From a virus (taxonomy: Duplodnaviria; Caudoviricetes): a stretch of DNA of 61,386 nucleotides. Both the position numbers and the translations under genes were made by a program. Below, one piece after another: positions 40,970 to 58,080 of the stretch (position 1 is the stretch's first letter; every line of letters begins with the position of its first letter). The notes under the pieces are model-generated. The model had not been told where the DNA came from and did not search any database. It saw nothing but the letters and a program-made list of their open reading frames with translations. The stretch lies in IMG/VR virus record IMGVR_UViG_3300017724_000002, positions 1-61,386 of that record; one strand, 5' to 3'.

Positions 40970-41190
40970 TATTTGTTTCAGACACTTTGAAAGAATTAAG
41001 AAATAAATAAAAGAGCCACTGCTCTTAACTTGTGCTAATTCTTTTAATTCCTCTTAAGGTGTGTAAGAATTATTCTAAAGGGGCGTTTTATCTAAACATC
41101 TAAGAAGAATAAAAAGAATTACGCTTCTGACCTCGCAGTGCGTCGATTATTTTCTTCCTATTTCTTTACAGGAGGTAAAAAGAATAAACT
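40970..41190. repeat. AT-rich dyad element A (homologous to 57850-58080 in inverted orientation)
   Basis: Shared blocks AATTAAGAAA, TTCCTCTTAAGGTRTGTAARAATTATTCT, TCTAAACATMTAAGAA, AAAAGAATTA, TTCCTATTTCTTT, GGTAAAAAGAAT. Confidence 0.85.
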
Positions 41191-41997
41191 CTTGACCCGG
41201 CTATGCTCAATTTCATCTATCTCTCGGAATAACATTCCCACATCACCTTTACGCCATTTCATTTTAGCACTAACTAACTCATGCCCCTTGTCGCATAACT
41301 CATAATGTCTTAGCATAATAGTGTTAATAATTGCAGTGGGCTTAGTGCGCTTTATCGTAGCGTGTGGGCGATAGTCTGCGCCATCTTCACCGCCCAAGAC
41401 CACGCTTGAAATCAGCACATCAGTTTCCAAATCAAATGCTTTACTCTCGCTCAAAGACTGCGCAATTACTAATCGAGGATAGTCACCGACTACCAGTGAA
41501 GGCAGCCACTTGATACCGACTCCATAAATGCGCATAGGCAGATAAAGACAGATTGATTCACCCCATGACTTCGGCGCAGTCAAGATTGTTTGGGGTTTGG
41601 TTTGCGCTTTAACAGACACCTGCGTATAACCATCAAACATATCAGTAGTGTTTGGTTCGGGCATATATGCGTGTGCGCACCTAAAAGCAAGAACATGGAC
41701 TTCTGTTTCGTGAATGAAATCTTGTAAGTCTTGCGCAAAAGTCTGCTCATAAACAAATTCGCCCTTCATTCCTTGATTCACAATTCTTCTTGGCATATCC
41801 GGTTGTACTGCGTCAATTAAATCCCAAATTGCGCTCTTTCCATCAACTGCCACACGATACTCACCCATGCGCAAGATAGCGAAGGGTGCAAAGAGTCTGC
41901 GCTTGCCTGCCCTGCGCCAACCAATAAATCGCTCAACAATAATATCTTGGGGGCGTGTCAAAATCCACTCGGCGCAGTATCTAAACGGTTGCATCAA
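41158..41997 (-). CDS. Hypothetical protein (start probably ~41868)
   Basis: Long - strand ORF; no family recognised. Confidence 0.55.
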   Translation of the reverse strand: MMQPFRYCAEWILTRPQDIIVERFIGWRRAGKRRLFAPFAILRMGEYRVAVDGKSAIWDLIDAVQPDMPRRIVNQGMKGEFVYEQTFAQDLQDFIHETEVHVLAFRCAHAYMPEPNTTDMFDGYTQVSVKAQTKPQTILTAPKSWGESICLYLPMRIYGVGIKWLPSLVVGDYPRLVIAQSLSESKAFDLETDVLISSVVLGGEDGADYRPHATIKRTKPTAIINTIMLRHYELCDKGHELVSAKMKWRKGDVGMLFREIDEIEHSRVKSLFFLPPVKK

Positions 41998-42021
41998 ATT
42001 AGAACAAGTGCCTCGTTCTTA

Positions 42022-42495
42022 TCAACCTGCGTTCAAGCAACATTTGCAACTCTCACGCTTAGAAAGGTTGAAATCAATATCTGAAAGATGCCGTTCATCA
42101 TCCTTCTCAAGAAGCCCTTTTTCTTTGGCTTCTTCGGTGAGTTTATCCCACTTTTTTTCTTGCTCGCTTCTTTGACTGAATGCTTTGGCTCTAAGAATAA
42201 GTCTTTTTTCTTCGTCGTCGCTTTCTGATTTGGGTTTGAGGATATGTCTTTTCTTAAGAAAGGGTTCTTCACCACCTGCCTTATGTGCATGTGCGTGCGT
42301 CTGTATGTTCTCAACGGCTCGCAGTTTTTCTTCTGCTTCAATCGCTCGCCTATACCACATCTGCATCGCTTCGTTCTTTACTTCTGCTTCCCGCTTGTAT
42401 GCTTCGCATAGTTCAATTAGAGAGTCAATCATTGTCGCTCTATCTATGGGTATAACTTCTTTGCCGGTTATGTTTTCAATTTGTTCAATCATCAT
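42022..42495 (-). CDS. Coiled-coil hypothetical protein
   Basis: E/K-rich helical ORF. Confidence 0.55.
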   Translation of the reverse strand: MMIEQIENITGKEVIPIDRATMIDSLIELCEAYKREAEVKNEAMQMWYRRAIEAEEKLRAVENIQTHAHAHKAGGEEPFLKKRHILKPKSESDDEEKRLILRAKAFSQRSEQEKKWDKLTEEAKEKGLLEKDDERHLSDIDFNLSKRESCKCCLNAG

Positions 42496-42627
42496 GTTTA
42501 TCTAAAGACTGGAAATATTTTTTCTCGGAAAATTTTCTGAATCATTCGGAAAACTTTTTTTTTCGTACTCCCTAAATAACTAAGTGTAAAAAATAAACCT
42601 AGTGCGCAAAATACATTAAGTGCAGTT

Positions 42628-43161
42628 TTAGGAAGCGGGATAATTAATTCCATAAATCCAATCTTGATTCCACCAATAAGGCGCAGGCCGACCTTTGCGC
42701 CATTCCGCAAAGTATGCCTTTTCTCCTTTGTAATACGCACGATATGCGCTTACTGCATCACCTTCCACCTTGTACTCGTCGGGCATACATTGCGCAAACT
42801 CGGTCAATTCCCCTTCGGGGATTCTGTCAGCCATCATAAACAAATGCTCAATGCCGTCTGCGCAGGCGTGAGTCTTGTCGAATCGCTTTTCGTATTCTTC
42901 GCAAAGCATTGCGGCGTGAAAGCAAGTCCACATATAATTTTCACTGGTTGCGCCAACCCAAAGAGTAGCGGGATGGTGCGCATAACCCCCCAAAAGTGGA
43001 GTTCCTTTTGATGTAAGAGGCATATCTGCATCTTCTGCGCCGTGTCTGCGTTGAGCCGAGCCAAGCATCTGAAAACACTCCACAATTAATTTTGGCACAT
43101 GCTTATCGCAATATGACATAGCCGCATAAATTGGCGATTCGTCAAGGATAAAAATATTCAT
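42628..43161 (-). CDS. Pyrimidine-dimer DNA glycosylase/AP-lyase family (T4 DenV-like)
   Basis: MNIFILD...CDKHVPKLIVECFQML...HHPATLW...LCEEYEKRFDKTHAC...QCMPDEYK...AYRAYY...WR..RPAPYWW signature. Confidence 0.85.
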   Translation of the reverse strand: MNIFILDESPIYAAMSYCDKHVPKLIVECFQMLGSAQRRHGAEDADMPLTSKGTPLLGGYAHHPATLWVGATSENYMWTCFHAAMLCEEYEKRFDKTHACADGIEHLFMMADRIPEGELTEFAQCMPDEYKVEGDAVSAYRAYYKGEKAYFAEWRKGRPAPYWWNQDWIYGINYPAS

Positions 43162-43334
43162 TCTAAAAACTCCCCAAACCATGTTTCGCCGTAGTGGTCG
43201 CAATCTTCGTTAGTGCATTCGTATATGCCTTCCTGCGCCCTGCGCACGCATTTATTGCAATGAGGGCATTTCTTGCGTGGTTTGCGTGGCATTCCAGTAA
43301 CCATCTTCGGGTTATTTTCCCAAACTTGACGCAT

Positions 43335-43613
43335 TCAAATGTCCTCTAGTTCTTTCATTTGCTTTTGCGCAACCTCTTGAAGTTTCTCAACATCTTCGAC
43401 AATGCCAAACATTTTATTCTGCACTTCGGGGTCATCTGTGATTCTTGCAACATCTGCGCACTTATCACATACGCTTTGCAATGTTTTGCTTAGTGCTTTC
43501 AAAGCCCAGTCTTGAATACCTGTTAACTTCTCATATCGTGATATTGTTTTTTGTTGTTCCTCTATCAAGCGAGCCGCCTTTGCGACAGTTTCATTCATTC
43601 CTTCTATGTTCAT
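43335..43613 (-). CDS. Coiled-coil hypothetical protein
   Basis: Helical ORF coupled to its upstream gene. Confidence 0.55.
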   Translation of the reverse strand: MNIEGMNETVAKAARLIEEQQKTISRYEKLTGIQDWALKALSKTLQSVCDKCADVARITDDPEVQNKMFGIVEDVEKLQEVAQKQMKELEDI

Positions 43614-43948
43614 ATTATGTTCGCCTCCTGTTCCGCCATTGCTTTAATCAATTGCGTTAGGCGCATGTGCGCCATTATCATATCTGTCTGCGTCTTTGCT
43701 TTATTGAACCAACCGATAACTTTCTGCGGTACATCTTGCCAACCAAACGCCTGCATAATGCGCACTTGAACCACCAAGTCGTTGCATGAATCGCAACATC
43801 GAGTATGGTCAAGCATACTTGCGTGGCTTGTGTCATCTGCGCTCAAAGGTTGCGCATTGTGGCCTTGAGTCCAATAGACCTTGCCTGCAAGGTCATCTTT
43901 GTGTTCTTTAATCGCTTTGTAGCATATCGAGCATATTTCTGTCATCAT
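43610..43948 (-). CDS. Zn-finger protein
   Basis: CSIC...GHNAQPL...RCCDSCNDLVV. Confidence 0.65.
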   Translation of the reverse strand: MMTEICSICYKAIKEHKDDLAGKVYWTQGHNAQPLSADDTSHASMLDHTRCCDSCNDLVVQVRIMQAFGWQDVPQKVIGWFNKAKTQTDMIMAHMRLTQLIKAMAEQEANII

Positions 43949-43993
43949 TTCATCTCCTGTGTTCCTTCCTGCGTGTTTAGTGATATAAACCCT

Positions 43994-44722
43994 TCACCAC
44001 TCCATGCCCCTTGTAGGGTCATCATCGTAGTCATTCATTGATAGTATGGTGTCATCCAGTGTATCTTTCACCGTTTCGGGAATTTGGTTCATTTCTGCGC
44101 TGAATCTTTTAGTGTTAAATTCATCTTCTGCGCCGTGTAACTCTTGCATCAATTCATTGACTCTTGAGAGCCAACCATGCGGTAATATTGATTCACAAAT
44201 GAGCATAGCCTCCGTGTTTTCGTGCGTTGTGTGCGTGGGGATTCCATTTAGCGCAGGGTGTTTTCCATGAACCTTTGAAATGATTGTAAAAAGGTGGTTT
44301 TTGCGCCTAAAGTCTTTATCGCCTTCTGATTCTTCGAGCATCATTTCAACACGCCTTCCAGTGACTTGACCGTTTCCCCAATTGCGCAAAATATCTTCCC
44401 ATTCTTGGGTGAACATTCCGTTGTTGCCTTTGCAACCTTCCGCCATGTCTAAGTGCGCCTTTACAATGTGAAATTCTATGCAGACTTCCCAAAGGTCAAT
44501 ATCCATTTTGTGCAAAATCTGCTCACACTCAACGAGTCTTGCCTGTGCTAACTGCGCCAAAATATCTGAAATATTAGAAAATGCGCTTGTGTTATCTGCC
44601 TTCAAAAATCCTAAATCGGGATTTAAGATTAACCCCGCATCGAAAAAAGTCTGATACAGAAAACCCACTGCGTCGCTTGGTGTTTCTATTTTCTTGCTCA
44701 TTGCGTCGTCTGCTTCGCTCAT
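43994..44722 (-). CDS. Hypothetical protein
   Basis: 242-aa ORF with GGTGA SD. Confidence 0.6.
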   Translation of the reverse strand: MSEADDAMSKKIETPSDAVGFLYQTFFDAGLILNPDLGFLKADNTSAFSNISDILAQLAQARLVECEQILHKMDIDLWEVCIEFHIVKAHLDMAEGCKGNNGMFTQEWEDILRNWGNGQVTGRRVEMMLEESEGDKDFRRKNHLFTIISKVHGKHPALNGIPTHTTHENTEAMLICESILPHGWLSRVNELMQELHGAEDEFNTKRFSAEMNQIPETVKDTLDDTILSMNDYDDDPTRGMEW

Positions 44723-44817
44723 TCTTCTTCACCTGCCAATACTTTTTCGTATTCTAAATGAACCTTTGGATGCCTTAAATGCAACCATAATAATAAATGA
44801 TTTAATTCAGTATTCAT
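44719..44817 (-). CDS. Microprotein (32 aa, MNTELNHLLLWLHLRHPKVHLEYEKVLAGEEE)
   Basis: Bridges two genes with ATGA overlaps at both ends. Confidence 0.55.
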   Translation of the reverse strand: MNTELNHLLLWLHLRHPKVHLEYEKVLAGEEE

Positions 44818-45305
44818 TCTTCTTCACCTCTTATTTCATAGTCTGCGTCTTTGCTTCCTGCGCTTGGGAATATCATGTGAGAAACTTTCTTTATCCCCAT
44901 AACCATCTCCAACATTCGGTCAACACTGCATCTCTCCGGCGTTTGCGGTATGCGCACATGAACGAGAACATCGCCAACGATTGCATAAGGTGCTTCTTGC
45001 GCAGGCATACCGAAAGCGGCATATGTGCCAATTAAGTTTGGTTCTTCGCCATAAATGCGCCCTTCTTCGTGCGCAATTACATCAATAATTTCAGCCATGA
45101 TTAGACCGGAGTTATCTTCTGCCGGTATTGGGAGTTTGACATTGCGCCCAAAGGTGCAATACTCAATCAGTCCACCGACTGCGCCTTGCATATCTTTAAG
45201 CGAAGGCTCGCCTTTTCCATTCTCTTTTTTTGCTATAATTGTAGGTTTGCTATTTGTTTCAATTTTTATCCAGTATTCTTCCAATTCAATCTCTCCTTGA
45301 TTCAA
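44814..45305 (-). CDS. DUF3846-like protein
   Basis: LKDMQGAVGGLIE...IAHEEGR...PNLIGT...IVGDVLV. Confidence 0.7.
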   Translation of the reverse strand: MNQGEIELEEYWIKIETNSKPTIIAKKENGKGEPSLKDMQGAVGGLIEYCTFGRNVKLPIPAEDNSGLIMAEIIDVIAHEEGRIYGEEPNLIGTYAAFGMPAQEAPYAIVGDVLVHVRIPQTPERCSVDRMLEMVMGIKKVSHMIFPSAGSKDADYEIRGEEE

Positions 45306-45422
45306 GCGTAGTGTCTGAGGGATATAAACCTGCCCCTCTTTTTATCCATATAACGCACGCTTTCAGCGTTTCTGCTAGTGTCCGTTTGCTCATCTGCTCA
45401 CGGTCTGCGGTGAATGCGTTGC

Positions 45423-47067
45423 TCATCTGCGCAACCTCCTTTCAATCATTGCGTCAAATTCTTCTTGTGTTTTCACAAGATAAATTGCGTGGCTGATTTG
45501 CTTGGGGCGCAAATACTTCTTTGCGTATGCTTCCGCCTTCTCATTTGCTTGCGCTATATTGCGAGTAAGGCGTGGGTTGCCCTCTATTGAAAATATGGTA
45601 TAGTCTGCGCCGAAACCAACATCAACGACAAAAGCGGGATATGTTGCGCTCACTGGAAAGCCTCCTTGAAATCTCCGCCGCATAAACATTCTTCGGCGCA
45701 GTCAGAATTTAATCTCCTGTTCATATCATCAACAAATCTGCTTGCATTTTCTGCGCTTGAAAAGAACGCAATGTGTCTGTTTGTGACTTCCTCGCCGTAC
45801 AAAAGACCGTCAAATTGTATTGCGTAGCCTTCGCCTGCGTCAGACCAAAGCATGTAAAACATTGATTTGCTCATTGTTCTTCACCCTCACAATAACATAT
45901 TTCTTCATCGGTTGAACCTGCGCATGATTTTTCGCATAATTCCATTCTTCTTTTCTTTCTCGCATCTTTAACTGCTTTCATTAATCTGTTTGCTATTCCT
46001 TTCATTCAATTGCCCCCTCTAAAGTGGTTATTGCGCTCTCTAAAGCAATATGCGCCTCATCTAACTCGCCTTCTGCTTCTTCAAGTGCCTGCGCAGATTC
46101 CTCTAACGCCTCTCCCATAGGAGTTGATTCAAGCATCCACTCGCAGATGTTGTCAAACTTTTCTGATTCTTGCGCCGCATAATCGCCGACCCAATTCCTC
46201 AATTCTTCAATTTCTGAAAGCATTTCTTGCAGTCTGCCTAATCTTTGCGCTATTTTTTTCCGGTCTTTTTGGTTCATTCCTCTTCGCCTCCTTCTTCTGC
46301 GCCACAGTCATTGCAAACTGCGCCGGTCATAGTATCACTATAATTCAAATGCTCGCATTCCGCCTTTGGCTTGCGCACCCATAGCGCACCGTCGCCGTTT
46401 CGCAAACTGATGCAGTCAATTGTTGAATGCGCAAGAGTATGATAAATTCCGATTCTGCCATCGGGCAAGCGCATAGCGTGTTGGTGCAAGACTGCGCACC
46501 AGTCGCCGCCTAATTCCTCCGGCAGTCTGATGGTTTCGTATTGCGTGGTTGGAATGAACATTCCGTCGCCCATATCCACTGCGCCTGCGCCATCAGTCCA
46601 CCCAGTCGGGTTTCCGAACATATCAACCGAGTCGCCAATTGGCTCTCCCCATTCATTTCTGCGCATCAAAGACCCGCCTCCGTCATTGCTTCTGAAACTG
46701 CGCTTGCAATGTCAATATCTTCGATGACTGCTTCGGTAGCCTTTGGCTTTGTGTATGTGTATGTGCGCTTCTTCGGCGCAATTGTTACAGTGTTGTGCTT
46801 TGCGCTTCCGTTAAAGTGCGCTCTTGTTGCGGCTGAGTTTGTCATTACTACGGTAATGTCGCCAGTCTTGCGCACATATACGCCTTTGCTGACTTGTTTC
46901 ATTTCTGCGCCGGAAATCGGGCAGATGCCGTTCATGGCTTTTTTGTTCATTTTTGCGTGCCAGTCTGACACGCCTCCATCCGGTCTGCGGCACAAGATAC
47001 CGACGACGGCATCACCTGCGACGCAATTTAATTTATATGGCTCATAATCTTGGGGTATATTCAACAT
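45423..47067 (-). CDS. Cluster of small early-type hypothetical ORFs (45423-45689, 45650-45874, 46002-46277, 46274-46669, 46666-47067)
   Basis: Coupled - strand ORFs downstream of the TATA box at 47106-47114. Confidence 0.55.
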
Positions 47068-47115
47068 TTTTTGTTCCTCCTTAACCTATCTCAAGCAGTG
47101 CGGGGTTATAACCCT

Positions 47116-47823
47116 TTAGGCATTTCCTCCGCTTCTGACCTTCTTTATGGCCGTTTTGACCTGTTCGGCGGTCAAGGGCAAGCCTTCGCCTGCGTACTGC
47201 TTGAGTGCGTCAATATTTACAGTCCATCGGAAGCGTGACCGTAGCGCATGAACAAGGAAGGCCAATTCTTCATATGCTCTTTGACCCGTTTCACACATAC
47301 CGTTCACCTTCGCCATGTGCGCCCTCGCCTTGTAGCCTCCGCCATACTTGAGTGTGCGCCCCATGTGCTTGACTTGGTGGCATCTCGGACATAATATAAT
47401 TATGCGCTCAAGATTCTGAACACAGTTTGCGTCGTCATAAGTCCAAACTTCATGCGCCTCCACTGCATGTTTGCGCCCTTGATTCAAACCGGAATCTCCG
47501 CAAATCTCGCACACATGACCCGCTTCTGCGTAGCACTGCTTGCGCAGTTTATCCCACTGCGTCTTTGTCAGCATACTGCGTAAGTTTGCGCCCCATGTGC
47601 CACTAGGCACTAACTCAATTGTGAGTTTGGGTTTCAATAATTCTGCGTGCGCCGTTGCCATAGCAACGCTCGTTTCATATCGTTCTTCTGCCTCGCATGA
47701 TGCGCACACTGGAACACCGCCAATGTTTGCGCCGTAAAGGTCGGCAGATTCTCCGCAGGGGCAAGTCCAGTTTTGGTTCGTCATATCCGAACCGACTCCA
47801 TTCCTGTTTATAGCGTTGCTCAT
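47116..47823 (-). CDS. HNH endonuclease
   Basis: LTIELVP...W..NLR...WDKLR...CEICG...EAHEVW...LCPRCHQVKH. Confidence 0.85.
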   Translation of the reverse strand: MSNAINRNGVGSDMTNQNWTCPCGESADLYGANIGGVPVCASCEAEERYETSVAMATAHAELLKPKLTIELVPSGTWGANLRSMLTKTQWDKLRKQCYAEAGHVCEICGDSGLNQGRKHAVEAHEVWTYDDANCVQNLERIIILCPRCHQVKHMGRTLKYGGGYKARAHMAKVNGMCETGQRAYEELAFLVHALRSRFRWTVNIDALKQYAGEGLPLTAEQVKTAIKKVRSGGNA

Positions 47824-47944
47824 GCTTCAACCCCCAAATTGCCCCAAAGTGCCAATATAGGGAGAATCGGCAGACATGCGCCTATGATAAGCGGGAACAT
47901 GAACGCAGGCATTCGCACAGAAAAGCGGAACAAGTGAACGGTAA

Positions 47945-49485
47945 TCATTCTTCTTCGCCTCCGTTGTTCAATGCTACCATCACCTGCTCAAAAAGGTCAT
48001 GGTCTGAAATGGTGGTTTCTGATTGTTTGCAAGTGCATGCACCTTCGCCAAACCCTTCTATGAAGGAACGGAATTGACATTCGTTAAATGGCGCAAGCAT
48101 AAGCATTTCTGCAAACAACATGAGCAAACCTTCGGTTTCTGCGCTCTTGCCTAAGTCAGACATGAAAGACGCTCTCGCCGTCTGAACATCGGGCAGTAAG
48201 TCCAATGCTCTTTGTTTAGACCATTGCATATGCGCCATTCGGCAGTTACCAGTGCAAACCGGCTCATCTGCGCATATATGCGTGTTGAAGGCTTCGCCTC
48301 GCACACTCAGCGCAGGGGCAGGCTCTTGCACATAGTCAAAAATTGAGGTTTGAATATTGGCAGGGGGTGCGGGATTATTTTTGGAGGGTGAGCAACCCGC
48401 CGCCCCGACTGCCTTTTTGAATGCAAATTCCATGAATGACGCATACGCCCATAGGACTGCGCCAATGATTAATATACCGAGAATGACATTCATTTCAAAT
48501 CGACTCCCATGAAATTTCATCTTGCTCGACCTTCTTAAAAAGAAGCCATGTTCCTTCCATGCGCTTGACCCAGTAGCCATGCCCCTTTATCTCCGCTTTG
48601 CGTGTGCGCCATTCATCCCAAAAGGTTTCGTTGCAATTGCCATACCATGTTGTGCGCTTTTTGCTCATCTTCATTTCGATGCCGAAAATCTCAAACCTTG
48701 TATAAACAGGGCGTGGTTCGGGGTGAACCTCTAATTCTGCGCCGTCAAGCCACTTCGCCAATTTTTCTTGAGCGAAGACTGTCGCTTTAGCGATTGCATC
48801 CTCTTCTTTGTGCGCAAGATTCTGAACAAATTGGCAATAGTGGGAGGTTGCGCCGTCAGATTTGGTGGACTTTACCTCAAGGTAAAGGGTATAAAATTGC
48901 TCTTTCTCGCCCGTTCTGCATACATGAAGAATACCGTCACGGCGCACTGTTTTTAGTGTGGATTGACCTTTGGCAGTGAAGGTGTTAGGGTGGACTGCGC
49001 TCATTGCTCATCAACCTCCGCCTTAAGTGCGCACAATTCATCAATCATTTCTTGCAATTTTCTTTGAATTGTTCCAAAGTGAACGCTCATCTTCTCCAAA
49101 TCGCTCATAGAAATTGTTTCATCTGAAAAGTGGCGGCGATTGTTAAGACAATCCCAGTGGAAATCAACGCCTTCCTCATAGTCATGCGCCTTATCCCTCG
49201 CCTCTCTTAGCATTTTTATCATGCCGTTTATTTTGTTGCTCATTCTTGTGCGCCCCCTGCAATGATTACCTTTTCACCGATTTTGACCTCAAAGAACATC
49301 GGGATAAGACCGACTTCAACGGTTTGGGTCAACAACCATTCAGAAAATAATTCTTCTGAATTGATTTCAGATGGCATAACGGCCACCATAAAACCGATTT
49401 CATTTGTTTCGCAGTGCATCGTTTTCGCAGTGAAAACGGGTACTACATCAGCAGGCTCAATATTGGGGTTCTGTGCTTCCTCCAT
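47945..49485 (-). CDS. Cluster of early hypothetical ORFs (47945-~48520 with TM, 48495-49004, 49001-49243, 49240-49485)
   Basis: Coupled ORFs downstream of the TATA box at 49509-49519; ATG 49485 is leaderless-spaced. Confidence 0.55.
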
Positions 49486-49519: not shown

Positions 49520-49987
49520 ATACCCAAAATGCACCACCTGCCCCACATTATGCGAGTAATTAATTTAATGCGTATGCCTGCATGTGCCTGCATGTGCCTC
49601 ATGTGTGTATGTGCATGTATGTGCGTGGGTGCAGGCTCGGCGGGAAGGCAAAATTTTTCTTAGAGTTTCATTGCGCATATAGGCAGGGATAACCGCAGGA
49701 ATTTGCGCCGAACATTGTTCAGAACGACGCACTGCTCTCAAGTCCTTCGAGGTTTTCGGTATGGCTTGCGCTCAATCCGAATCAATCAGAATTTTTGCGG
49801 ATTTGCAAAAACCAAAAACTGCGCAAAATGCGCAGATTCAAAAAAAATAAAAAAAATCGCCCCGTTGGGTCGCAGTGGGCTGAATTGACACGGGGCGCAC
49901 ATCAATTCTTGAGCCGTTTTGTTTGTTTTTCAATCCTCCTTTTTTGTTTTTTTATTCGTTCTTTAGCCTTTCAGTCTGTCGTTTTGC

Positions 49988-51022
49988 TCAGTTTTTCTTT
50001 GCTTTGATTTTGAGCAAAGTCTTAACCACTGCGTCAACTGCTTTCTTCAATTCATGCTTTTTGTCGTTACTTCTAGGAATGCACTCAACAACATCGAAGT
50101 GGTCGCAGTGCATCATTTCTGCGGCTTTTTCTGCTAATTCGTAGGGCAAATTTTCTGAGCAACCCGAGCCGCTAGACCTTCGCCCGGTCAAAACCTTGCT
50201 CGCAGTACCCCGAAAGCCAAAGCCAACGGTTCTAAAAGCCCATGCACTCATGGCACTTGCCGCCTGCTCAAGATTTAGCGGCGCAGTTGCCGACTTTACC
50301 TTGATTATTGCGCAACCCGATTTATCACCGTTCACGACGGTTGAATAGGCCACTGAGTAGATTTCAACACATTGACCTTGAGCCTCAAGGATTTGCGCCG
50401 CCGCCATAGTTGCCGCCATTCTGAACATCATTATATCGGCATTAATGCCTCCTAGTGCATTGATTGGAACGAATAACCCGATAGTTTCCCGCTTGATTCT
50501 TCTCTTTCTTTTGTTTCTGAAAATATTTTCATCACCGTTGAGCAGTGCGTCGATTGAGAAGCCAATCATTTTTCGAGGTTCGGCTTGCATTTTGCGCAGT
50601 GAAACCACGATTTCAGAAGTAAAATTTTCTAAACCTTTGAATGCGTTTTTCGATACACTGCGAGCCTTTTCAGCGTCGGGTTTCCATGCTCGGCCTTGAT
50701 GTGCTTCATCAATAATATCTGAAACTGTGCCGGTTCTACCATACCATCGTTGGTTATTGCCCGGGTCATCCATAAGTACGGCGCAGTCATGCTTTTCAAT
50801 GCTTCTAACTGCGGCACTCATCGAAGGGGCAACGCCAATTTCACATATCCCGCCGGAATATTTGACCTCAGCATATACGACACCTTCGCCGTCTGTCTTT
50901 TTCTTGTTAAATTTAGCCATATTTTTCACCTCCATAGTTTGAGATTTTGCGCCATTAGTCGGGAGTCTTTCGAGTCCGTCATTCAGTGGCGCAGTACCCC
51001 GATTATGCGCCTCCTGCGACAT
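49988..51022 (-). CDS. vWA-like partner of MoxR ATPase (start probably ~50921)
   Basis: IGLFVPINALGG...AAAQILEAQGQCVEIY...IKVKSATAPLN...AFRTVGF; directly downstream of the AAA gene. Confidence 0.65.
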   Translation of the reverse strand: MSQEAHNRGTAPLNDGLERLPTNGAKSQTMEVKNMAKFNKKKTDGEGVVYAEVKYSGGICEIGVAPSMSAAVRSIEKHDCAVLMDDPGNNQRWYGRTGTVSDIIDEAHQGRAWKPDAEKARSVSKNAFKGLENFTSEIVVSLRKMQAEPRKMIGFSIDALLNGDENIFRNKRKRRIKRETIGLFVPINALGGINADIMMFRMAATMAAAQILEAQGQCVEIYSVAYSTVVNGDKSGCAIIKVKSATAPLNLEQAASAMSAWAFRTVGFGFRGTASKVLTGRRSSGSGCSENLPYELAEKAAEMMHCDHFDVVECIPRSNDKKHELKKAVDAVVKTLLKIKAKKN

Positions 51023-53222
51023 TCAATTGGCCGTCGTATACCGACTGCGGAATCATTGCGCACTCAATTAAATCTGAGCCGTCACCCTTGCCAACTGAGA
51101 AGTGATTCGCTATACTGCGAGCCATTTCCTCATCAACAGTTTGCGCCCACCTTGCAATAATTGCGTTCAAAGTCCAACCATTGCGAGCCATTGCGAGGCC
51201 ATGACTCAAGGCACGATATGAGAACGAAACGCTAGACTGCGCCGTTAATTCGCAAACTTTTTCATATGCCTCAAACAACTGCTCAGATGATGCCGGCTCG
51301 CCGGAATCGCTACACTCAACCTCTTTTGGCGCACTTTTCAAACCACACATACCGGCCATAATACGGACACTGCGGCGATAATGAACGACGCAAGCACTGA
51401 AACGGTCAACCAATGACTTATCCTGTTTTTGCGCCGCCACATATGCCGGTGAATAACTTAGCCCGGTCGTATTTCCTGCGGCGATTATGAAGCAATTTTT
51501 ATGCATCTGATGAACCTTCCCGGTTGCCGGGTCAACAATTGACTTATTGGCTAGAACTCCGTTTAAAACGGTCATAACGGCGTTATCTCCCTTGTCTATC
51601 TCATCAACAAAAGCAAGGCCACCCTCAAGTATTGCCTTAACTAGACCCGATTTATTCCAAGTCGTTGCGCCTTGCATCATGTTGTAATTTTTGCCGCCTA
51701 GTAGTTGGCTTGCTTCCATATCAGCAAAACATATGACCTCGCCATAATTTGCGTGTTGTTTTTTGGTTATTTCCCCGGCTTCAAGTAGCATGTCGTTGAT
51801 AGTTTTGACACAGAATGACTTCCCTATCCCGGCATCACCATTGAGCCAAACGGGCAACGGATAGCCGTTATCTGTCCTTGAAGTTATGATATTATACACG
51901 GTTGGCACTTGGGGATGATATAGACCCGTAATTTTGACAGGTTTTGACTTCTTGGATTTTTGAACCATCAACGGCGCAATCGGTTGACTGCTCTCTATTT
52001 TTTCGATTAATTCATCATATTTTGCGTCGATTTTTTGGTCTGTGTGGTTGATTTGGTCGTTTAATCTCAAATAGTCATTATTGGCTCTAGGTACAACGGT
52101 TGAAGCATCGAAATGTTCAACAATTTTCCAAACAATGTTTTGAACTGCGCTCTCATCAATTTGAGCATTTGCGCCGCCTAAATTTCCATCAAGTAAATCA
52201 ACAATTTGCGCCGCAATGACCTCTTTTGACTTTGGCTCATGCTTCAAATTATGTGTTGATTTTGTGCCGTTCAAGTCAATAGTCAACTTTTTGGTTGGTT
52301 CTTTTGTCGGTTCTGATGTTCTCAATTTCATTTTTGGATGGTACGCAGTCTGCGTTTTAGGTGGGGTTGGAACTGTCGTTGGTACTGTCGGCACTGTCTG
52401 AGAATTTCCGCCTAGAATTTCATTGATATAGTAGGCATTTTCAACGGCGCAACCGTAGCAGTGCGGCTTATTTTGTGCATAGTTTGGAGATGGTAGCATG
52501 ACCTTATACTCGCCTGTTTGAATTTCACAATGACAGTCAACGCAAGAAGTTGAGTTTTTGGAGTGCTTTCTTGCTCTCCATGCCCCTTTTACATTGCGGC
52601 CAAACTGCTCATACTCGACGGGCATTTTAGACCTAGCCATCAGACCAACGCCAAACAGACCACTGCTCAACAATTTAGGCATAAATAGCCATGCAATACC
52701 AAAAGAAAGTATCACAATACTCACGCTAAACACAACACTGCGAGCCAATAGCCAAACTTCCCCGGGAGGATTTTCTGATAAATAGCCTTCATCAATGTTA
52801 CAATCAGCGCATAGACCGTTATCAAATAGCGGCTCAGTGGTGCTTTCAACCACTAGACAGACCGGGCAAATATCCCAATCTTCAACCTCTTTAACCTCAG
52901 ATAGCGGCGCAGTGTCCGTTTTAGGTTGGTTTACTAGAGAAGAAAAGAATCTTCTCAAGAGTGCGCCCCTAAGATTTTGTCGCTTTGAGGCTAATTCTAA
53001 ACGGTGGACTGCTCGCTTAAACGAGTGTCTAGTAGGTAGCATTTGAGATGGTGTGATTATCAGACCATCGGCGGCGCAGTTTGTTGTTTCATATTCGGAT
53101 GACTCAGCGTTAGAGTCCTTGCTTATCATTTCATAGTCAACGGCGCAGGGTGCTAAAAAGACCACTGCGACCATCAACAACGCATTTATTATGCTTGTTT
53201 TAGTTTGCATTTTGCTCACCAT
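51003..53222 (-). CDS. MoxR/CbbQ-type AAA+ ATPase with long N-terminal TM and Zn-finger extension
   Basis: VWLNGDAGIGKS, LVKAILEGGLAFVDEIDK, HKNCFIIAAGNT, DKSLVDRF; start 53222 lies ~22 nt downstream of a TATA box. Confidence 0.85.
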   Translation of the reverse strand: MVSKMQTKTSIINALLMVAVVFLAPCAVDYEMISKDSNAESSEYETTNCAADGLIITPSQMLPTRHSFKRAVHRLELASKRQNLRGALLRRFFSSLVNQPKTDTAPLSEVKEVEDWDICPVCLVVESTTEPLFDNGLCADCNIDEGYLSENPPGEVWLLARSVVFSVSIVILSFGIAWLFMPKLLSSGLFGVGLMARSKMPVEYEQFGRNVKGAWRARKHSKNSTSCVDCHCEIQTGEYKVMLPSPNYAQNKPHCYGCAVENAYYINEILGGNSQTVPTVPTTVPTPPKTQTAYHPKMKLRTSEPTKEPTKKLTIDLNGTKSTHNLKHEPKSKEVIAAQIVDLLDGNLGGANAQIDESAVQNIVWKIVEHFDASTVVPRANNDYLRLNDQINHTDQKIDAKYDELIEKIESSQPIAPLMVQKSKKSKPVKITGLYHPQVPTVYNIITSRTDNGYPLPVWLNGDAGIGKSFCVKTINDMLLEAGEITKKQHANYGEVICFADMEASQLLGGKNYNMMQGATTWNKSGLVKAILEGGLAFVDEIDKGDNAVMTVLNGVLANKSIVDPATGKVHQMHKNCFIIAAGNTTGLSYSPAYVAAQKQDKSLVDRFSACVVHYRRSVRIMAGMCGLKSAPKEVECSDSGEPASSEQLFEAYEKVCELTAQSSVSFSYRALSHGLAMARNGWTLNAIIARWAQTVDEEMARSIANHFSVGKGDGSDLIECAMIPQSVYDGQLNVAGGA

Positions 53223-53243
53223 TCTGTCGTTAGTCCTTAGAGG

Positions 53244-53254
53244 ATATAAACCCC
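53244..53254 (-). promoter_or_regulatory. Archaeal TATA box GGGGTTTATAT
   Basis: ~22 nt upstream of ATG 53222, next to the first array motif. Confidence 0.7.
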
Positions 53255-53268
53255 AAACATCAGACCAA

Positions 53269-54798
53269 AAAACCGTTGTACTGAAAGCCAATAGGCTCGC
53301 AGTGTGCCTTGAGTCAAAGAGGGGTTTGATTGATATACTAAACCTTGACGCACCCCGGTTTTGATTTTCACTCAGCGCAGTTTCAAAACAGGCTTGCAGT
53401 ACATCGTTTATGGCTCAGTACGGCGTTTTGAAAAATGAAAAATCAAAATCAGCGCAGTTTGAAAATTAATAGCGGCGCAGTCTATCATTTAGAAATTGCG
53501 CAGGCTTTCAGTATAACGGTTTAGTCGAGCAGGCTTTCAGTCTATCGTTTAGGTTAATGCGCCGATTTCAAACAGGCTTTCAGTATAGCGTTTTTCTCTT
53601 ATAGATTCTGAAAATGGTCGGGTTGAAGACCGGACACTAAAACGACCAAAATAGGCTCTCAGTCTATCATTTAGAGTCAACGACGCAGAATTATTAATTG
53701 GCTCGCAGTCTATCGTTTAGGGATTTCGGCAATTCCCCGGGTTTCTAAACGGCGCACTGCTAAGGTGTAGTTTTTGCACCGATGGTAAAATAGCGGCGCA
53801 GTCTATCGTTTAGGGTGTTTTATCTGATTCCAAAGTGATTTGCAAAACTCCCGAAACCGGAAATTGACGGCGTAGGCTCTCAGTCTATCGGTTTCAATCG
53901 GTAAAGGGGCAACGGCGCACTATTGAACCATTGGTTAACTAGCGGCGACATAGCCAAAATGGCCGCAGGCTCTCAGTATATCGTTTATGTCCGGTCAAAA
54001 CAGGCCGACATGGGGCTTTCGGTCTAGCAGTCTATCGTTTAGACGCAGTGCATCGTTTAGGGTTTGCTCAGAACCCCCCCTCCGCTTCGCAGTCTATCGT
54101 TTAGAGAGGGAAATTTTGACCCATTTACCGGAAAACGGCAATTCAAAATAAAAACGCAGTACAACGGTTTTAACTTTTGAAATAGAAAACTGAGCAAAAC
54201 GATGATGCAGGAAGGCGAGATATGAACACTGCGAGCCTGTTTTTTGGCGCAAAATTACCTCAAACAAAATTAAAACCGTTGCACTGAAAAAGTCAGAAAA
54301 GCCTCATTTCATCCATTTTGCTCAATTTCCATAAATGCGCAGTTTGAAACCGTAAAACGGTAAATATGGTATTCTTATTTCAATTAATATGTTCACAAAC
54401 CGGAAAGGGTGGGGCGCAGTCTATCGGTTTTCAATCCCCGGGAGTCAATTGTCTGATGTTTGATAATTGGAAAAATGCGACGCAGTACAACGGTTATGGG
54501 GTGGGTAGGCTCTCAGTGATGCGTTTTTGGTTTTTGCTCAAAATGTCTAACAATAGCAAATAAGAGCAAATTTCCATCTGAAACAAGTCCGACGCACACC
54601 GTTTAACCTCAGTGGATTTTATTTCAATTTGCGCAGAAAAATGAAAGACAGGCTCTCAGTGTGTCGTTTTTGATTAGTTTTTGGCTCAATTTTTAGTGTC
54701 GATATGCTCAAAATATCAGAAAATCGTTATTAATTATTAATTTTTGATTTATTTTGACTTCTCAGATGAGCAAAACAGGCTCTCAGTGCATCGTTTAG
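53269..54798. repeat. Non-coding array of ~25 degenerate ~22-bp motifs (consensus ~YAGGCTYKCAGTNYATCGTTTAG)
   Basis: e.g. 53530 CAGGCTTTCAGTCTATCGTTTAG, 53652, 53699, 53791, 53966, 54088, 54776; ~4 inverted copies (53269, 53745, 54227, 54272). Confidence 0.9.
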
Positions 54799-54922
54799 GA
54801 AAATCAAACGGCGCAAAAAAATATGCTCTAAAATGCGCCAAAAACTGCGCATACTGGCGGCGGCTTACACGCCAACCACCGCAAAAAATTAGCCGTATTT
54901 TTCTGAAATTGGGCTTATAAAC

Positions 54923-56413
54923 CTAAAAAAACGGTACAAACCTTTTATTTCTTGAAATTCTTTTTGTTTTTTTGCCAGCAGACCACTTTGACGCATCTAA
55001 TGACCCTCCTATGACTGCTAAACCAGTGTTTTGTGACGACTTTACTTGGTCTATGGCGTGTGCAAGAGCCATTACGGTATCATTATGCTTGCCTTTGTCC
55101 GTTATATCGCCGTTTTTCCATACATGCGACTCTAACTCGTCAAGTAGTATGCTCATAACACGCCTTGTTTCGTCATTTCCGTATGGTATAATGACTTTTT
55201 CTTGTTCAAACCATACTCTAAGGCGATTTAGCAAGCCTTGCTTGAGTGTTTTATTAGATACCTTGCTCATTTTAAGATTTAGAGTAAGACCCTTTTGGTT
55301 AATAAGTGATTGATACAAAGACTGAAAACCTGCGCTTTCAAATGCAAATACTGGGTGCTTGTATGCGTCATCGAAGTCTTTAATCACTTTAATTTGTTTG
55401 GCAGGAGGGAAATCGTTGCGTCGCCACAAATTGACTATGTGAACATTGCCATCTTTGTCTTGTCTAACTACAATTGCAACGGTATAGTCTTGTCCGATAC
55501 CATGTGAAGGGTCAAAACCTACAATATAGTCGCCTTCATGCAATTTTTGCTTTTGCAATATTCTATCCATGTCAAGATTTTTACGAGTAAGTGTTTGTGG
55601 GAATACTGCGCTATCATCATCGACAACCATACAAAGATACTCTTGCGCAAATGCTAACTCGCCAATAGCCTCTCTTTGTTCAAGTAAAAACTCAAGAGGT
55701 CGTTCATCAGCCCAAAGACAGACAGGTTTAATGTCGGGGTCATTGCGCCATTCATCATAGTTAACAATTGCACCTTTTTGCCATGTTTCCCATGCGTCAT
55801 TACCTAACATTTCAGTATGATAAAGGTCATTCATGCTCATAGGTGTGCCAACACAAAACAAACTGGTTTTAGGTGATAGCATAGGGGTAAGTTTTTTTCT
55901 GAACCACTGCTGATATACTTCATAGGACATATCATTTTGGTCGTCAATAATGTCATCAAGAGCAATTGCGGCGGGGTGTTCACCACGAATACCCGAACCA
56001 ACCGATGTAGCCTTAATCCATGCACCATTTGTTAGACGAAGTTCAAATCTGTTACCTTTTGTTAAATCAACCTTTTTAGATAATTCGGGGTGTCTTTTAA
56101 GGTCTTGGCGTATTTCTTCTAAACGATTCATAGCAAGGTCTTTATTTGCTGAAAATAACCAAATAGTAAAAGGTTTGCCACGCCACTTTTCAAAAAGTAA
56201 CATATGTAATAACTTTACACGAAGCGTTGTGGACTTAGAATGGTCACGGGGCGCAATAATACAAACACGGTGAACCTGCTTTCCTTTATTGTTTCCATAT
56301 AAGTCAAGCCATGTTTGAATATGGTCGCCCCATTTATACCCAAGCCATTCATAAAAATGGCGTATGTCATATCTGCTACGCTCAAGATGAAAGGTTGTCA
56401 TTAAACGAACCAT
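54923..56413 (-). CDS. terL: Terminase large subunit
   Basis: APRDHSKS Walker A, GIRGEHP...LDDI Walker B, VGTP, FAQEY, nuclease GFDPS...DYT, HNDTVMALA. Confidence 0.95.
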   Translation of the reverse strand: MVRLMTTFHLERSRYDIRHFYEWLGYKWGDHIQTWLDLYGNNKGKQVHRVCIIAPRDHSKSTTLRVKLLHMLLFEKWRGKPFTIWLFSANKDLAMNRLEEIRQDLKRHPELSKKVDLTKGNRFELRLTNGAWIKATSVGSGIRGEHPAAIALDDIIDDQNDMSYEVYQQWFRKKLTPMLSPKTSLFCVGTPMSMNDLYHTEMLGNDAWETWQKGAIVNYDEWRNDPDIKPVCLWADERPLEFLLEQREAIGELAFAQEYLCMVVDDDSAVFPQTLTRKNLDMDRILQKQKLHEGDYIVGFDPSHGIGQDYTVAIVVRQDKDGNVHIVNLWRRNDFPPAKQIKVIKDFDDAYKHPVFAFESAGFQSLYQSLINQKGLTLNLKMSKVSNKTLKQGLLNRLRVWFEQEKVIIPYGNDETRRVMSILLDELESHVWKNGDITDKGKHNDTVMALAHAIDQVKSSQNTGLAVIGGSLDASKWSAGKKTKRISRNKRFVPFF

Positions 56414-56615
56414 CGTCACCACTCCTGTTAAAAATCGGGAAGCCGCAGTATTCAGCCAAAGCATACGCTAGCGACTCAACCTCGCTTCTTTCAAGCATTA
56501 TACCAACAACCATTTCTTCTGCAAACAAATTAAATGCAATATAATCCTCGCCCATATCGGCAATACGCAATTGTTTGTCGGGGCTAATCCATATGGGCAT
56601 CTGCTTTCCTTCCAT
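56382..56615 (-). CDS. Small hypothetical protein
   Basis: Coupled between phosphoesterase and terL. Confidence 0.5.
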   Translation of the reverse strand: MEGKQMPIWISPDKQLRIADMGEDYIAFNLFAEEMVVGIMLERSEVESLAYALAEYCGFPIFNRSGDDGSFNDNLSS

Positions 56616-57810
56616 TTAGTGTGTTTAATAATCTTAGTCCATGTCGAAGGTCTGTAAATGCCTGTATATCTCTTGTTTCTGAATCAAGAATAACCATAGG
56701 TGATGTTGGGCGTTCTCTTGGAAATCCGCACATTTCACCAAAACTGTCAATAGTCTTATATGCGCCGGGTCTTATTGCATAACGCTCGACTGCATGACGA
56801 GTAAATGGAACAACAGACGGTGTATGGTGGTGTCCTATAACTCCAATATCGAAATCACACTCTCCGTCATCCCACATTTTCTTAATTACACGGCTTGGGT
56901 CAAGGTTTGAATTGCCTCTTCGCTTGTGTCGAATACTAAGGTGATAAGGAACATCGCCGTGAATAACTTTGAGGTTTAACTCATACGGATGATACAAAAC
57001 TCCCCTGTCTTGAGCAAGACGCTTTAGTGGGTCATAATCTGTTGCACCGGCAGTCCAAAGGTCGTGATTACCTGCAACAATAGCCATAAGTGATGTTGGA
57101 GTCATGTTAATGTAGTGTTCACATAACTGCCACTGGATAGAAGGCGGAATTGGTGCTTTCATTGCAGGTCGTGGCTTGTCAATCATAAAGTTATCAATGT
57201 AGTCGCCTGCGTGTATAACATAACAATCGGGGTGTCCTTCAATTACTTCTGTGTCACGGCGTAGTCTTTCATGGTCGCAAAAAGGATTACCTATGTGTTG
57301 GTCACTTTGAAATGCAATTCCAATGTATCGTTGCTTAGACTTCATGTGAAAAACTGCCCAACGAGCATCTTCATTTGCAAGAATTGCCGCTTTTGAGCGT
57401 TCTTCTATAACATTCCATAGATTTTCACCTGTCGATGCAGACTTTTTCAAATGTTCAACAATAAAATGCGGTGTTTCTGTTTGTTTGACTGCTTTACGCT
57501 CATACGCACGCCTAACTCTATTATCCCAACCAGTCTTTGATATTTCGGGAAAACGCTTTGCCATAATCATTGCTAACTGATTCATGTTGCCGTCAAACTC
57601 CATTGGTATTTCTGCATTGTAGTCAACCACTTCAATACTTGGAAAAATGTCGGGTTCATGTTGTTTTAACATACGCAAACGCCAACGGTGCGATTCTGCT
57701 TCTATTTCGGGCATAATATTCGCCATGTGTCTTGAAAACTTAGCCATATTACCATCATAATGTTCTATCTCTTTTCGGACTGTATTAGTATAGTCGTCAT
57801 CACTGCTCAT
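56584..57810 (-). CDS. Calcineurin-like metallophosphoesterase with N-terminal helical repeats
   Basis: SDQHIG, AGDYIDN, AGNHD, GHHH motifs. Confidence 0.9.
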   Translation of the reverse strand: MSSDDDYTNTVRKEIEHYDGNMAKFSRHMANIMPEIEAESHRWRLRMLKQHEPDIFPSIEVVDYNAEIPMEFDGNMNQLAMIMAKRFPEISKTGWDNRVRRAYERKAVKQTETPHFIVEHLKKSASTGENLWNVIEERSKAAILANEDARWAVFHMKSKQRYIGIAFQSDQHIGNPFCDHERLRRDTEVIEGHPDCYVIHAGDYIDNFMIDKPRPAMKAPIPPSIQWQLCEHYINMTPTSLMAIVAGNHDLWTAGATDYDPLKRLAQDRGVLYHPYELNLKVIHGDVPYHLSIRHKRRGNSNLDPSRVIKKMWDDGECDFDIGVIGHHHTPSVVPFTRHAVERYAIRPGAYKTIDSFGEMCGFPRERPTSPMVILDSETRDIQAFTDLRHGLRLLNTLNGRKADAHMD

Positions 57811-57849
57811 GTTCTGTCCTTGTTTATATTAACACTTAAAGGCTTGCTT

Positions 57850-58080
57850 TAATTAATTCTTTTTACCACATAGAAAGAAATAGGAAAAAATAAATCGTTG
57901 CACTAAAAGCCTAATGTGTTAATTCTTTTATTTGTTCTTATATGTTTAGAATAAAAGGCGCATTATTCTGTAAGAATAATTTTTACATACCTTAAGAGGA
58001 AATAAAACAATAAAGGGAAATCGTGATACTCAAGCCCATTTATTCTTTCTTAATTTTTTCTTTCGCCTTGAAAGAATAAA
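57850..58080. repeat. AT-rich dyad element B at the strand-divergence point (origin candidate)
   Basis: Reverse complement aligns block-by-block with 40970-41190; lies between the divergent phosphoesterase and portal genes. Confidence 0.85.

Follow-up and report, generated by a model that had tools for sequence, protein, structure and literature searches.

What might two related stretches of non-coding DNA, about 17 kb apart and inverted relative to each other, do in the genome of a tailed virus? The genome in question is IMG/VR record IMGVR_UViG_3300017724_000002 (Duplodnaviria; Caudoviricetes), a sequence of 61,386 nucleotides that we analyzed over its whole length and call the window; the two stretches, here named element A and element B, lie close to 41 and 58 kb. 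The initial annotation described them as homologous elements in which conserved blocks alternate with diverged spacers, and proposed that they are either twin replication origins of an archaeal virus or paired sites for looping or inversion of the segment between them. In our analysis the elements take shape as dyad-symmetric arrays of short motifs that are kept at the same two places in related genomes. The reading that we favor, tentatively and with a probability of roughly 0.45, makes A and B a pair of origin-like sites at which an initiator would bind and the DNA would unwind, as the replication origins of a tailed virus with an archaeal-type replisome.

Elements A and B form an inverted pair

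Element A is a non-coding, dyad-symmetric and AT-rich composite element at positions 40953–41203 (plus strand; nhmmer E-value 4.9e-52). Its counterpart in the opposite orientation, element B, lies between divergent operons at 57839–58091 (minus strand; E-value 9.2e-57). These extents were defined by nhmmer with a profile of 22 copies and are slightly longer than the ~220 bp given originally; the pair itself is real. When A is aligned with the reverse complement of B, the local alignment is colinear and scores 124, compared to a mean of 21.4 (standard deviation 2.8, maximum 34) for 1000 dinucleotide-preserving shuffles, which corresponds to z = 36.6. A BLAST search of A against its own record also finds B, with an E-value of 1.1e-23 and 75% identity, and both results confirm the claim of two related non-coding elements in inverted orientation. 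Pieces of the A–B alignment are the three longest inverted repeats of the window (52, 46 and 39 nt long, at 81%, 78% and 90%, respectively), and a 29-nt block has 2 matches in the window compared to 0 in 100 shuffles. The two elements share identical runs of 12–13 nt. All the conserved blocks quoted originally are present in both, and conserved blocks including the arm and inner-repeat motifs described below have no other site in the window. The spacers between the blocks, described originally as diverged, contain a recognizable box.

Neither element codes for protein: every frame contains 4–8 stops, so that all six are closed, and no more than 38 codons are open. The AT content is 66.5% in A and 72.3% in B, compared to 58.9% in the genome, and B falls in a 250-nt window that ranks second in the genome for AT content. 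At lengths of 100 and 200 bp, B is the least stable duplex in five of six genomes and ranks second in that of the window, and A ranks 3–25 across the six. Element A is placed between two minus-strand genes. Element B is placed between the divergent genes 56584–57810 (minus strand) and 58176–59651 (plus strand), which bears out the proposal that it sits at the point where transcription diverges.

Each element is a dyad-symmetric array of motifs

The internal organization was derived from an alignment of 22 element copies taken from the window and its IMG/VR relatives (alignment A2). Each element is a quasi-palindrome, a property that adds to the original description: aligned with their own reverse complements, the two elements score 48 and 42, compared to ~21 for shuffles, and the axis of symmetry lies near column 132 of the alignment. 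As a consequence, profile searches match both strands at each site. Read in the plus orientation of A, the parts are an outer TTATTCTTTC, a purine-rich arm (GAAAGAATTAAGAAAGAATAAAT), the left box, TTATTCTTTTAATT, an inner motif (CTTCTTAAGGTGTGTAAG), a center with a G/C island of variable sequence and an indel of 0–18 bp, the inverted inner motif (CTAAACAYCTAAGAAGAAT), AAAAGAATAAAT, the right box (AGGCTTTCAGTGCAACGATT), the inverted arm (ATTATTTTTTTCTTAATTCTTTC) and an outer AAAAAGAATAAA motif. From the outside inwards, the dyad consists of the outer motifs TTATTCTTT / AAAGAATAA, purine-rich arms of 23 bp, one iteron-type CAGT box per side, inverted motifs of 19–22 bp and finally the central island. 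Motifs of the AAGAATWA type are repeated within the elements.

The right box reads outward in all aligned copies, and the orientation of the left box varies even among orthologs. In A, the right box (41128–41153, plus strand) is an iteron-type CAGT box followed by a T-rich arm; it contains the AGTGCGTCGATT block and scores 15.5–17.8 bits with the iteron position weight matrix (PWM) described in the next section. The left box of A (41011–41026, minus strand), identified from its sequence and from a terminator-like scan match, has the CAGT core in the opposite orientation and forms a 6-bp hairpin that is followed by a T-run on the minus strand. The right box of B (57888–57913, minus strand) is a degenerate iteron-type box in which TTAGT replaces TCAGT; it scores 6.6 bits in the window, and the orthologous box in relatives reads AGGCTTTCAGTG... 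and reaches up to 22 bits. The left box of B (58018–58037, minus strand; alignment columns 61–80) stands in direct orientation with the right box. A variable G/C island is central in all copies of the alignment and corresponds to GC-rich positions 41080–41085 at the dyad center of A and 57957–57961 at the center of B, where B-type copies carry an adjoining 8-bp insertion that can form a hairpin.

Between A and the ATG at 40932 there is a TATA-like promoter box, GGTTTATACC on the minus strand (40957–40966), which is kept as GGTATAAACC in 8 of the 8 non-flipped A-type rows of the alignment. It sits outside the core of A, and the ends of B have no conserved counterpart. A TTTTATC stretch inside the element is not conserved among relatives.

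The symmetry of the elements does not appear to reflect an RNA or DNA hairpin. RNAalifold returns 0 pairs on the 22 copies. Over 80 arm pairs, complementarity is 66.2%, compared to 66.1% when the 3' partners are dealt among the sequences (221 of 500 shuffles are as high) and 46.8–59.0% when the register is slid. Because complementarity of the arms stays at the level of shuffled partners, the symmetry is one of motifs kept on both arms and not of compensatory base pairing. The elements are conserved as sequence, probably as arrays of protein-binding motifs, and not as base pairs. Local hairpins in the boxes are weak, with mean z-scores of –0.3, 0.0 and –0.7, and a long hairpin or cruciform was rejected on the basis of the same shuffled control.

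The elements share a box with an iteron array

The gap that separates the terminase gene end from the AAA_5 gene start holds an array of iterons without open reading frames (ORFs) (53292–54922, plus strand). This array contains ~20 CAGGCTNTCAGTCTATCGTTTAGG-like boxes, which with few exceptions are on the plus strand; its iteron measures ~24 bp, and it was delineated from repeat families D1, D3, D6, D7, D14 and D16, a regular expression and the PWM. More CAGGCTNTCAGTCTATCGTTTAGG-like boxes occur in the flank at 49.4–53.3 kb (outliers at 49404–53291). The PWM, built only from the array at 53.2–54.9 kb, finds 35 sites above 10 bits where 2.85 are expected, 14 of these 35 having served to build it. 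Scored with an AT-rich background, the elements exceed 10 bits in 34 of 49 unique copies, compared to 0.87% of shuffled elements, and 12 bits in 28 of 49, compared to 0.4%. The AGTGCnnCGATT block of the initial annotation is a copy of the iteron box, which recurs ~30 times. Each element has one or two boxes of the iteron type. To judge from these matches, the boxes of the elements are iterons, with a motif that they have in common with the array.

In four relatives (G001–G004) the array is present with 28–36 clustered sites above 12 bits. At the corresponding place in a fifth, G005 (L116:2290–2690, ~22.3–22.7 kb), we observe short perfect palindromes that have varied arms and a common core, ATCTTCGAT, and the same region also holds inverted repeats of the GGGCCCCCTAAA type. 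Contigs from several metagenomes break or differ at the iteron array of the window, and their depth is raised there. The array may be an origin, a titration array or a site related to packaging. In the flank, the non-coding stretch 49560–49987 contains TG/CA-rich imperfect repeats (GCATGTGCCT... and TGTGTATGTGCATGTATGTGCG), poly-A runs and several iteron-like boxes.

The pair is conserved in related viruses

Loci upstream of the portal gene were searched with the 22-copy profile if they had at least 1200 nt of upstream sequence, which led to the omission of 10 shorter loci. All the relatives that remain (70 of 70) carry element B upstream of their portal gene, down to a portal identity of 54%. 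Element A lies upstream of the homolog of P0002, the first gene downstream of A, in all 14 loci (one locus without upstream sequence was dropped), at a distance of 21–35 nt. As BLAST with A is too insensitive in relatives, nhmmer was used on complete genomes. Each of the six complete genomes (the window and G001–G005) has exactly two full-length copies 16.3–19.8 kb apart, and G002 has an additional partial match of 14.9 bits; the suggested check of copy number in relatives gives two copies in each of these six. The copies are inverted in five of the six genomes and ambiguous in G005. In all six, one copy occupies the strand switch, the other sits within the block of minus-strand genes, and the intervening segment is never inverted.

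Five more distant genomes were searched by BLAST, and four of them give matches: G007 and G008 have both copies, inverted and ~16.5 kb apart, G006 has a second copy ~20 kb from weak two-strand matches at the portal-side copy, G009 gives a single match and G010 none. The best-scoring strand of B varies in distant relatives, which is ambiguous given the symmetry of the element, and an apparent flip of A in loci L090–L092, L094 and L095 was likewise treated as ambiguous orientation, as the boxes are symmetric and the center has diverged. Two loci, L015 and L042, have ~0.9 kb between B and the portal gene, compared to the usual 80–160 nt, which suggests an inserted gene at the divergence point. 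Pattern searches were of less use: an exact 28-nt block gives 0 matches in IMG/VR, being too strict for relatives that the profile searches found, and a looser 19-nt pattern gives 18 stretches and cannot be used for copy counts at scale.

Similarity across genomes is mostly higher from A to A and from B to B than from A to B. Together with the orthologous positions of both copies at such portal divergence, this upholds the view of the initial annotation that selection, rather than a recent duplication, accounts for the pair. A and B are ~64–75% identical. Their similarity is 0.638 within the same genome and 0.590 between different genomes, the true pairing ranks second of 5040 permutations, and lineage-specific changes common to both copies occur within genomes. 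The raised similarity of A and B within a genome indicates that they co-evolve, either through a shared trans-acting factor or through occasional or rare gene conversion. On these comparisons, the A–B pair is ancient and under selection.

A tentative case for twin origins

Twin origins are put first because iteron boxes, an easily melted AT-rich stretch, a dyad, two copies and a context of replication genes come together in the same elements. Element A heads a conserved replication module, and the virus encodes PolB, an RFC-like clamp loader and ERCC4-HhH, PD-(D/E)XK and Mre11-like nucleases. In the mechanism that we propose, a sequence-specific initiator would bind the boxes of the elements, and viral or host proteins would assemble on a cis-acting site of ~240 bp. 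The AT-rich arms would provide a DNA unwinding element (DUE), with the T-rich strands facing inward-moving synthesis. The dyad symmetry would let two helicase rings load head to head, for which the MCM-like ATPase encoded downstream of A is a candidate. The separate iteron array might modulate initiation by titrating the initiator or by pairing with it, and transcription from the adjoining TATA-type promoters may assist opening.

This reading can be extended to a three-site circuit, which we consider distinctly doubtful. A single iteron-binding initiator would act at A and B as twin bidirectional origins that load two MCM-like helicases, and the array, located between A and B and 3–4.5 kb from B, would set the firing time as a sink or pairing partner, much like the ORB-rich region at oriC2 of Haloarcula hispanica (see below). 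One of the twins would possibly act later as a protein-bound fork barrier, leading to concatemer synthesis, in line with the proposal made for oriR of SPP1.

A number of observations weigh against twin origins. No Orc1/Cdc6-type initiator is found in the whole record, where the best match to Cdc6_C reaches 11.8 bits compared to a cut-off of 25.1, and the gene that adjoins A has a PbaA-like product and not a DNA-binding initiator. The fold match of the MCM-like ATPase is weak (Mcm5, E-value 1.2e-3, TM-score 0.34). GC and AT skew, proposed earlier as a check, track the coding strand and follow the direction of transcription, and give no signal or inflection at A. Element A is just moderately AT-rich, and its instability rank in the window's own genome is 13–51. 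The array at 53.3–54.9 kb is itself a candidate origin, and A and B could be mere auxiliary sites. Moreover, G005 lacks the array (1 site), yet retains CAGT boxes in its elements. This implies that the link between array and elements is not obligatory, with the elements constant and the array accessory, and for the same reason co-evolution of the array with the element boxes failed as a test. Finally, both elements abut gene starts, which a role in transcription control explains equally well, and in the available text of PMC8707807 conserved intergenic repeats of the archaeal tailed virus HF2 are shown to be promoters.

Alternative functions

Control of transcription is the alternative that survives best, and we regard it as possible but on the unlikely side. 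A and B would be regulatory modules placed upstream at the heads of operons, perhaps as bidirectional promoters or as terminator–promoter junctions. A virus-encoded regulator bound to them would set the timing of the replication operon (from A) and of the early and structural operons that diverge at B. The short distance between A and the P0002 homolog, with the conserved TATA-like GGTTTATACC in between, agrees with such a role, as does the position of B between two divergent first genes. The P0002/MCM-like operon at A and the portal operon at B are faced by one and the same end of the element; as these operons lie on opposite strands, this alone would account for the inversion of the pair. 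Read outward, the arms are rich in T, and the left box of A places its hairpin and T-run on the transcribed strand, which fits termination before the next promoter. The co-evolution of A and B fits a shared regulator equally well, and the repeats of HF2 provide a precedent for conserved intergenic repeats that can be promoters (PMC8707807, available text). On the other hand, the general GGTTTATA promoter motif occurs at six or more other gene starts that have no element, and the element has just two copies. The basal TATA motif falls outside these, the TATA-like stretch inside the element is not conserved, and B has no conserved TATA box by its ends. Scans for sigma-70-type promoters and terminators stay at the shuffle level, except for the one hairpin in the left box of A. 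In addition, ~240 bp of dyad motifs, with a box that recurs in an ORF-free array where there is no gene to regulate, is more than archaeal or phage operators usually need. Origins and transcription control are not mutually exclusive, because many viral origins include promoters and transcription can assist their opening.

Another kind of cis-acting site appears improbable, whether for partition (centromere-like) or for recognition in packaging, and so does a miniature inverted-repeat transposable element (MITE) fixed at two places. The elements are small and AT-rich with terminal inverted motifs, as in a MITE, and a box in common with an array that adjoins the large terminase gene would fit a site for a packaging or partition protein. 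However, copies of a MITE sit at variable, non-orthologous sites, whereas here every genome examined has exactly two orthologous copies at the same two syntenic positions and no variable insertions, which counts against a mobile element. Two inverted copies with 17 kb between them are ill-suited to a packaging start, and no ParA/ParB or small terminase subunit was recognized in the profile scans.

Still less probable are sites for DNA looping or, as in Gin/Hin or FLP/FRT systems, paired recombination sites at which the 17-kb segment would be inverted. Two related inverted sites do flank a defined segment, their identical 12–13-nt runs could act as crossover cores, and the raised similarity of A and B within a genome could come from occasional gene conversion. 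The inversion proposed in the initial annotation nevertheless finds no support in the arrangement of the genomes, which is the same in all six that are complete. We also compared the assembled contigs of four DNA runs (X1, X3, X5 and X13) over 40000–58999, a stretch that they cover completely. Contigs in the reference arrangement bridge A in X1, X3 and X13 and B in X1 and X13, and X5 has no listed piece across either; this evidence is weak, as contigs show presence and not absence. No strand-change joint is among the joints listed, which leave aside 144 pieces and 62 loose ends, and contigs drop rare variants. No recombinase, integrase, resolvase or invertase was found with Pfam, PHROGs and NCBIfam in the ~53 ORFs scanned, a set that leaves aside a few small and some structural ORFs. 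Finally, the moderate identity of A and B and the greater closeness of orthologs than paralogs imply that homogenization is weak. In low-depth contigs (X1, 2.6; X3, 2.7) the outer end of B at 58059/58060 is joined to 49345 on the same strand, with ~30 other letters in between. This join, which is not among the joints listed, may stem from a relative with a rearrangement or from the way AT-rich repeats assemble.

The least credible function is that of genes for a structured non-coding RNA, whether one long hairpin or paired small RNAs, because the quasi-palindromic form of the elements and the short hairpins of several right boxes (differing stems, a constant TTTCAGT loop and then T-runs) are outweighed by 0 Rfam matches in the whole window at the gathering threshold, by the lack of covarying pairs, arm complementarity above shuffled partners or strong hairpins described above, and by a left box whose orientation differs among orthologs.

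Genes next to element A

The first gene downstream of A, P0002 (40108–40932, minus strand), is predicted to have a fold like that of PbaA and PbaB, archaeal chaperones/activators of proteasome assembly. Its model has a mean predicted local distance difference test score (pLDDT) of 76.6, and Foldseek matches it to 3wz2 and 3vr0 with an E-value of 1.1e-5 and a probability of 1.00; no match is found in Pfam, PHROG or NCBIfam. P0002 is kept adjoining A in relatives. The modeled fold hints at manipulation of the host proteasome, and P0002 was rejected as an origin-binding protein on account of this fold.

The second gene, P0001 (38617–39921, minus strand), encodes a putative ATPase of the MCM clade of AAA+ proteins with a C-terminal winged-helix-like domain. 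The translation contains Walker A, Walker B and arginine-finger-like RRF motifs, and Foldseek gives weak matches to Mcm5, ChlI (Mg-chelatase) and Mcm4 with E-values from 1.2e-3 to 3.4e-3. The model has a pLDDT of 67 and is poor in the ATPase core, and sequence searches against PDB, NCBIfam and Pfam found nothing. The Pfam MCM model touches only the AAA_5 gene, at 51.4–51.9 kb and at its cut-off, a level at which control genomes show it to be unspecific. It had been stated that A heads an MCM operon. A does lie directly upstream of the start of the two genes, but the MCM identity of the second is weak, and we regard this statement, which leans on the model of P0001, as plausible but weakly founded. 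In the small ORFs that were scanned, Pfam found none of the winged helix-turn-helix proteins invoked in the initial annotation. On the other side of A, the ORF P0003 (41158–41997, minus strand) overlaps the right end of A with its last ~13 codons and received no function from the profile scans.

Genome layout and surroundings

The record carries the classification of direct terminal repeats and a completeness of 100%. Bases 1–123 are an exact copy of 61264–61386 (repeat search, family D2), and this 123-bp repeat sits within a long ORF that runs from 60346 onward and continues into 4–1494. The repeat is therefore better explained as the assembly overlap of a circular or circularly permuted genome than as a physical end. 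A structural block on the plus strand extends from the portal gene at 58176 over the junction to 22294, and minus-strand genes extend from 57810 down to 22402. Leftward of B, the minus-strand gene 56584–57810 encodes an Mre11-like metallophosphoesterase or DNA repair exonuclease (Pfam Metallophos, 1.1e-6; PHROG 7339, 4.1e-32). Rightward of B, the plus-strand gene 58176–59651, the first of the structural block, encodes the portal protein (Pfam Portal_T4, 24.9 bits with a cut-off of 22.9; Phage_portal, 7.1e-8).

According to Pfam, the minus block also encodes the large terminase subunit, an AAA_5/MCM-like ATPase and a DUF7192 protein, and profile scans add an HNH endonuclease and a glycosylase-like DNA-binding protein. 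The same block contains genes for a deoxynucleotide kinase, the RFC-like clamp-loader ATPase, the family B DNA polymerase and the PD-(D/E)XK and ERCC4-HhH nucleases. In tblastn searches, the best named relatives of DNA polymerase B are haloarchaeal tailed viruses at 23–24% identity, with T4-like matches also distant, and the portal protein gives 0 matches against GenBank phages. The gene set agrees with the description of magroviruses in the available part of PMC5434244, which makes this label plausible, and an archaeal host is therefore likely. A scan of the whole window for tRNA genes found nothing.

A shared GGTTTATA(T) motif lies 10–45 nt upstream of the minus-strand starts at 25817, 28075, 32503, 40932, 43948 and 45305, often together with a ribosome-binding site like GGAGG. 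The motif is probably the TATA-type promoter used generally in the minus block.

In an identity profile against four relatives, the genome varies most in the interval between A and B (~42–54.5 kb hypervariable), and conservation is seen in the replication module beyond A and in the genes around B. No nucleotide match to 50001–52500 was found in the four relatives, the closest one included. The DUF7192 gene and most of the gene for the 762-residue AAA_5 protein fall in this unmatched stretch; in the latter protein there are CxxC pairs like those of Zn ribbons, segments that are hydrophobic and a linker rich in Pro and Thr. Mosaic breakpoints at A or B were rejected, as the profile shows no sharp break at either element.

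Significance and comparison with known systems

Such viruses abound in the surface ocean. The main texts of three papers on magroviruses (PMC5434244, PMC11706807 and PMC10160649), supplements aside, do not mention an origin of replication, an intergenic repeat, an inverted repeat or a promoter. The conserved pair of elements, with its grammar of motifs and the array, provides DNA baits for finding the initiator or regulator among expressed viral proteins by DNA affinity. The elements might also be used for replicons in uncultivated marine archaea, or for reading replication activity from metagenome coverage. If the three-site circuit were true, it would give the abundant, uncultivated tailed viruses of marine archaea their first defined origin system; if the elements were transcription switches, they would define the temporal modules of such genomes.

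Archaeal origins consist of an AT-rich DUE flanked by origin recognition box (ORB) repeats of varying number, orientation and spacing, and an ORB-rich region negatively regulates oriC2 of Haloarcula hispanica, as described in the available text of PMC5333045 and PMC1868953. The virus elements resemble them in having a long, intergenic, AT-rich and easily melted stretch with flanking boxes that vary in number and orientation. More than one origin per replicon occurs in archaea, as there are two sites in the virus, and the accessory box-rich region that regulates oriC2 has a parallel in the iteron array. The motif TTTCAGTG may resemble the core of the ORB. In contrast to archaeal origins, which lie next to a cdc6/orc1 gene, the elements have PbaA-like, (weakly) MCM-like, Mre11-like and portal genes as neighbors, and no Orc1/Cdc6 gene is either adjacent or encoded elsewhere in the genome. 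The box sequence is the virus's own, and the elements add conserved AT-rich motifs in strict dyad symmetry.

The Bacillus phage SPP1 has two similarly organized origins, oriL and oriR, with repeats and an AT-rich DUE, ~13 kb apart, according to the accessible text of PMC6316719. The likeness is close in several respects: both are tailed viruses, each has two related sequences some kilobases apart (~13 kb in SPP1 and ~17 kb here, with two such sites in all six complete genomes) that combine repeats with an AT-rich element (PMC6316719 and PMC3485210, in part), and one origin is intergenic in the late gene block. For SPP1, the same partial texts propose the second copy as a bound barrier that switches the mode of replication. 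The differences are that the repeats of SPP1 are direct, are bound by gp38 and, in oriL, lie inside gene 38, whereas the sites of the virus are dyad-symmetric and intergenic, and that SPP1 uses DnaB and PolC, whereas the replisome of the virus is of archaeal type (PolB, RFC-like and MCM-like).

The halovirus HF2, in which a complex bidirectional promoter region is also described, infects archaea, as this virus probably does, and is likewise a tailed virus. Its AT-rich intergenic repeats keep their sequence, position and orientation across the genus, and one of its regions has repeated boxes between divergent transcripts (available text of PMC8707807). Its repeats differ in measuring 29 and 58 bp, in standing at many operon heads and in containing the TATA box and the start site (PMC8707807, same text), whereas the virus element measures ~240 bp, occurs only twice and has its basal TATA motif outside. 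A conserved position upstream of transcription units is nonetheless common to both, as seen here for B in 70 of 70 relatives and for A in 14 of 14 loci.

A further parallel is found in the herpesviruses, with which tailed viruses share a common virion lineage. The oriS and oriL palindromes of herpes simplex virus lie between divergent genes, and oriLyt-L and oriLyt-R of Kaposi's sarcoma-associated herpesvirus are inverted copies. The virus has no sequence or protein homology to initiators of the UL9 type, and the inverted copies of herpesviruses lie in long inverted repeats of the genome, whereas here only the ~240-bp element is repeated. The plan of the sites is nevertheless alike: an AT-rich center, dyad-symmetric flanking boxes (those of an initiator in herpesviruses, candidates for such a role here), a position between divergent genes and inverted duplicates.

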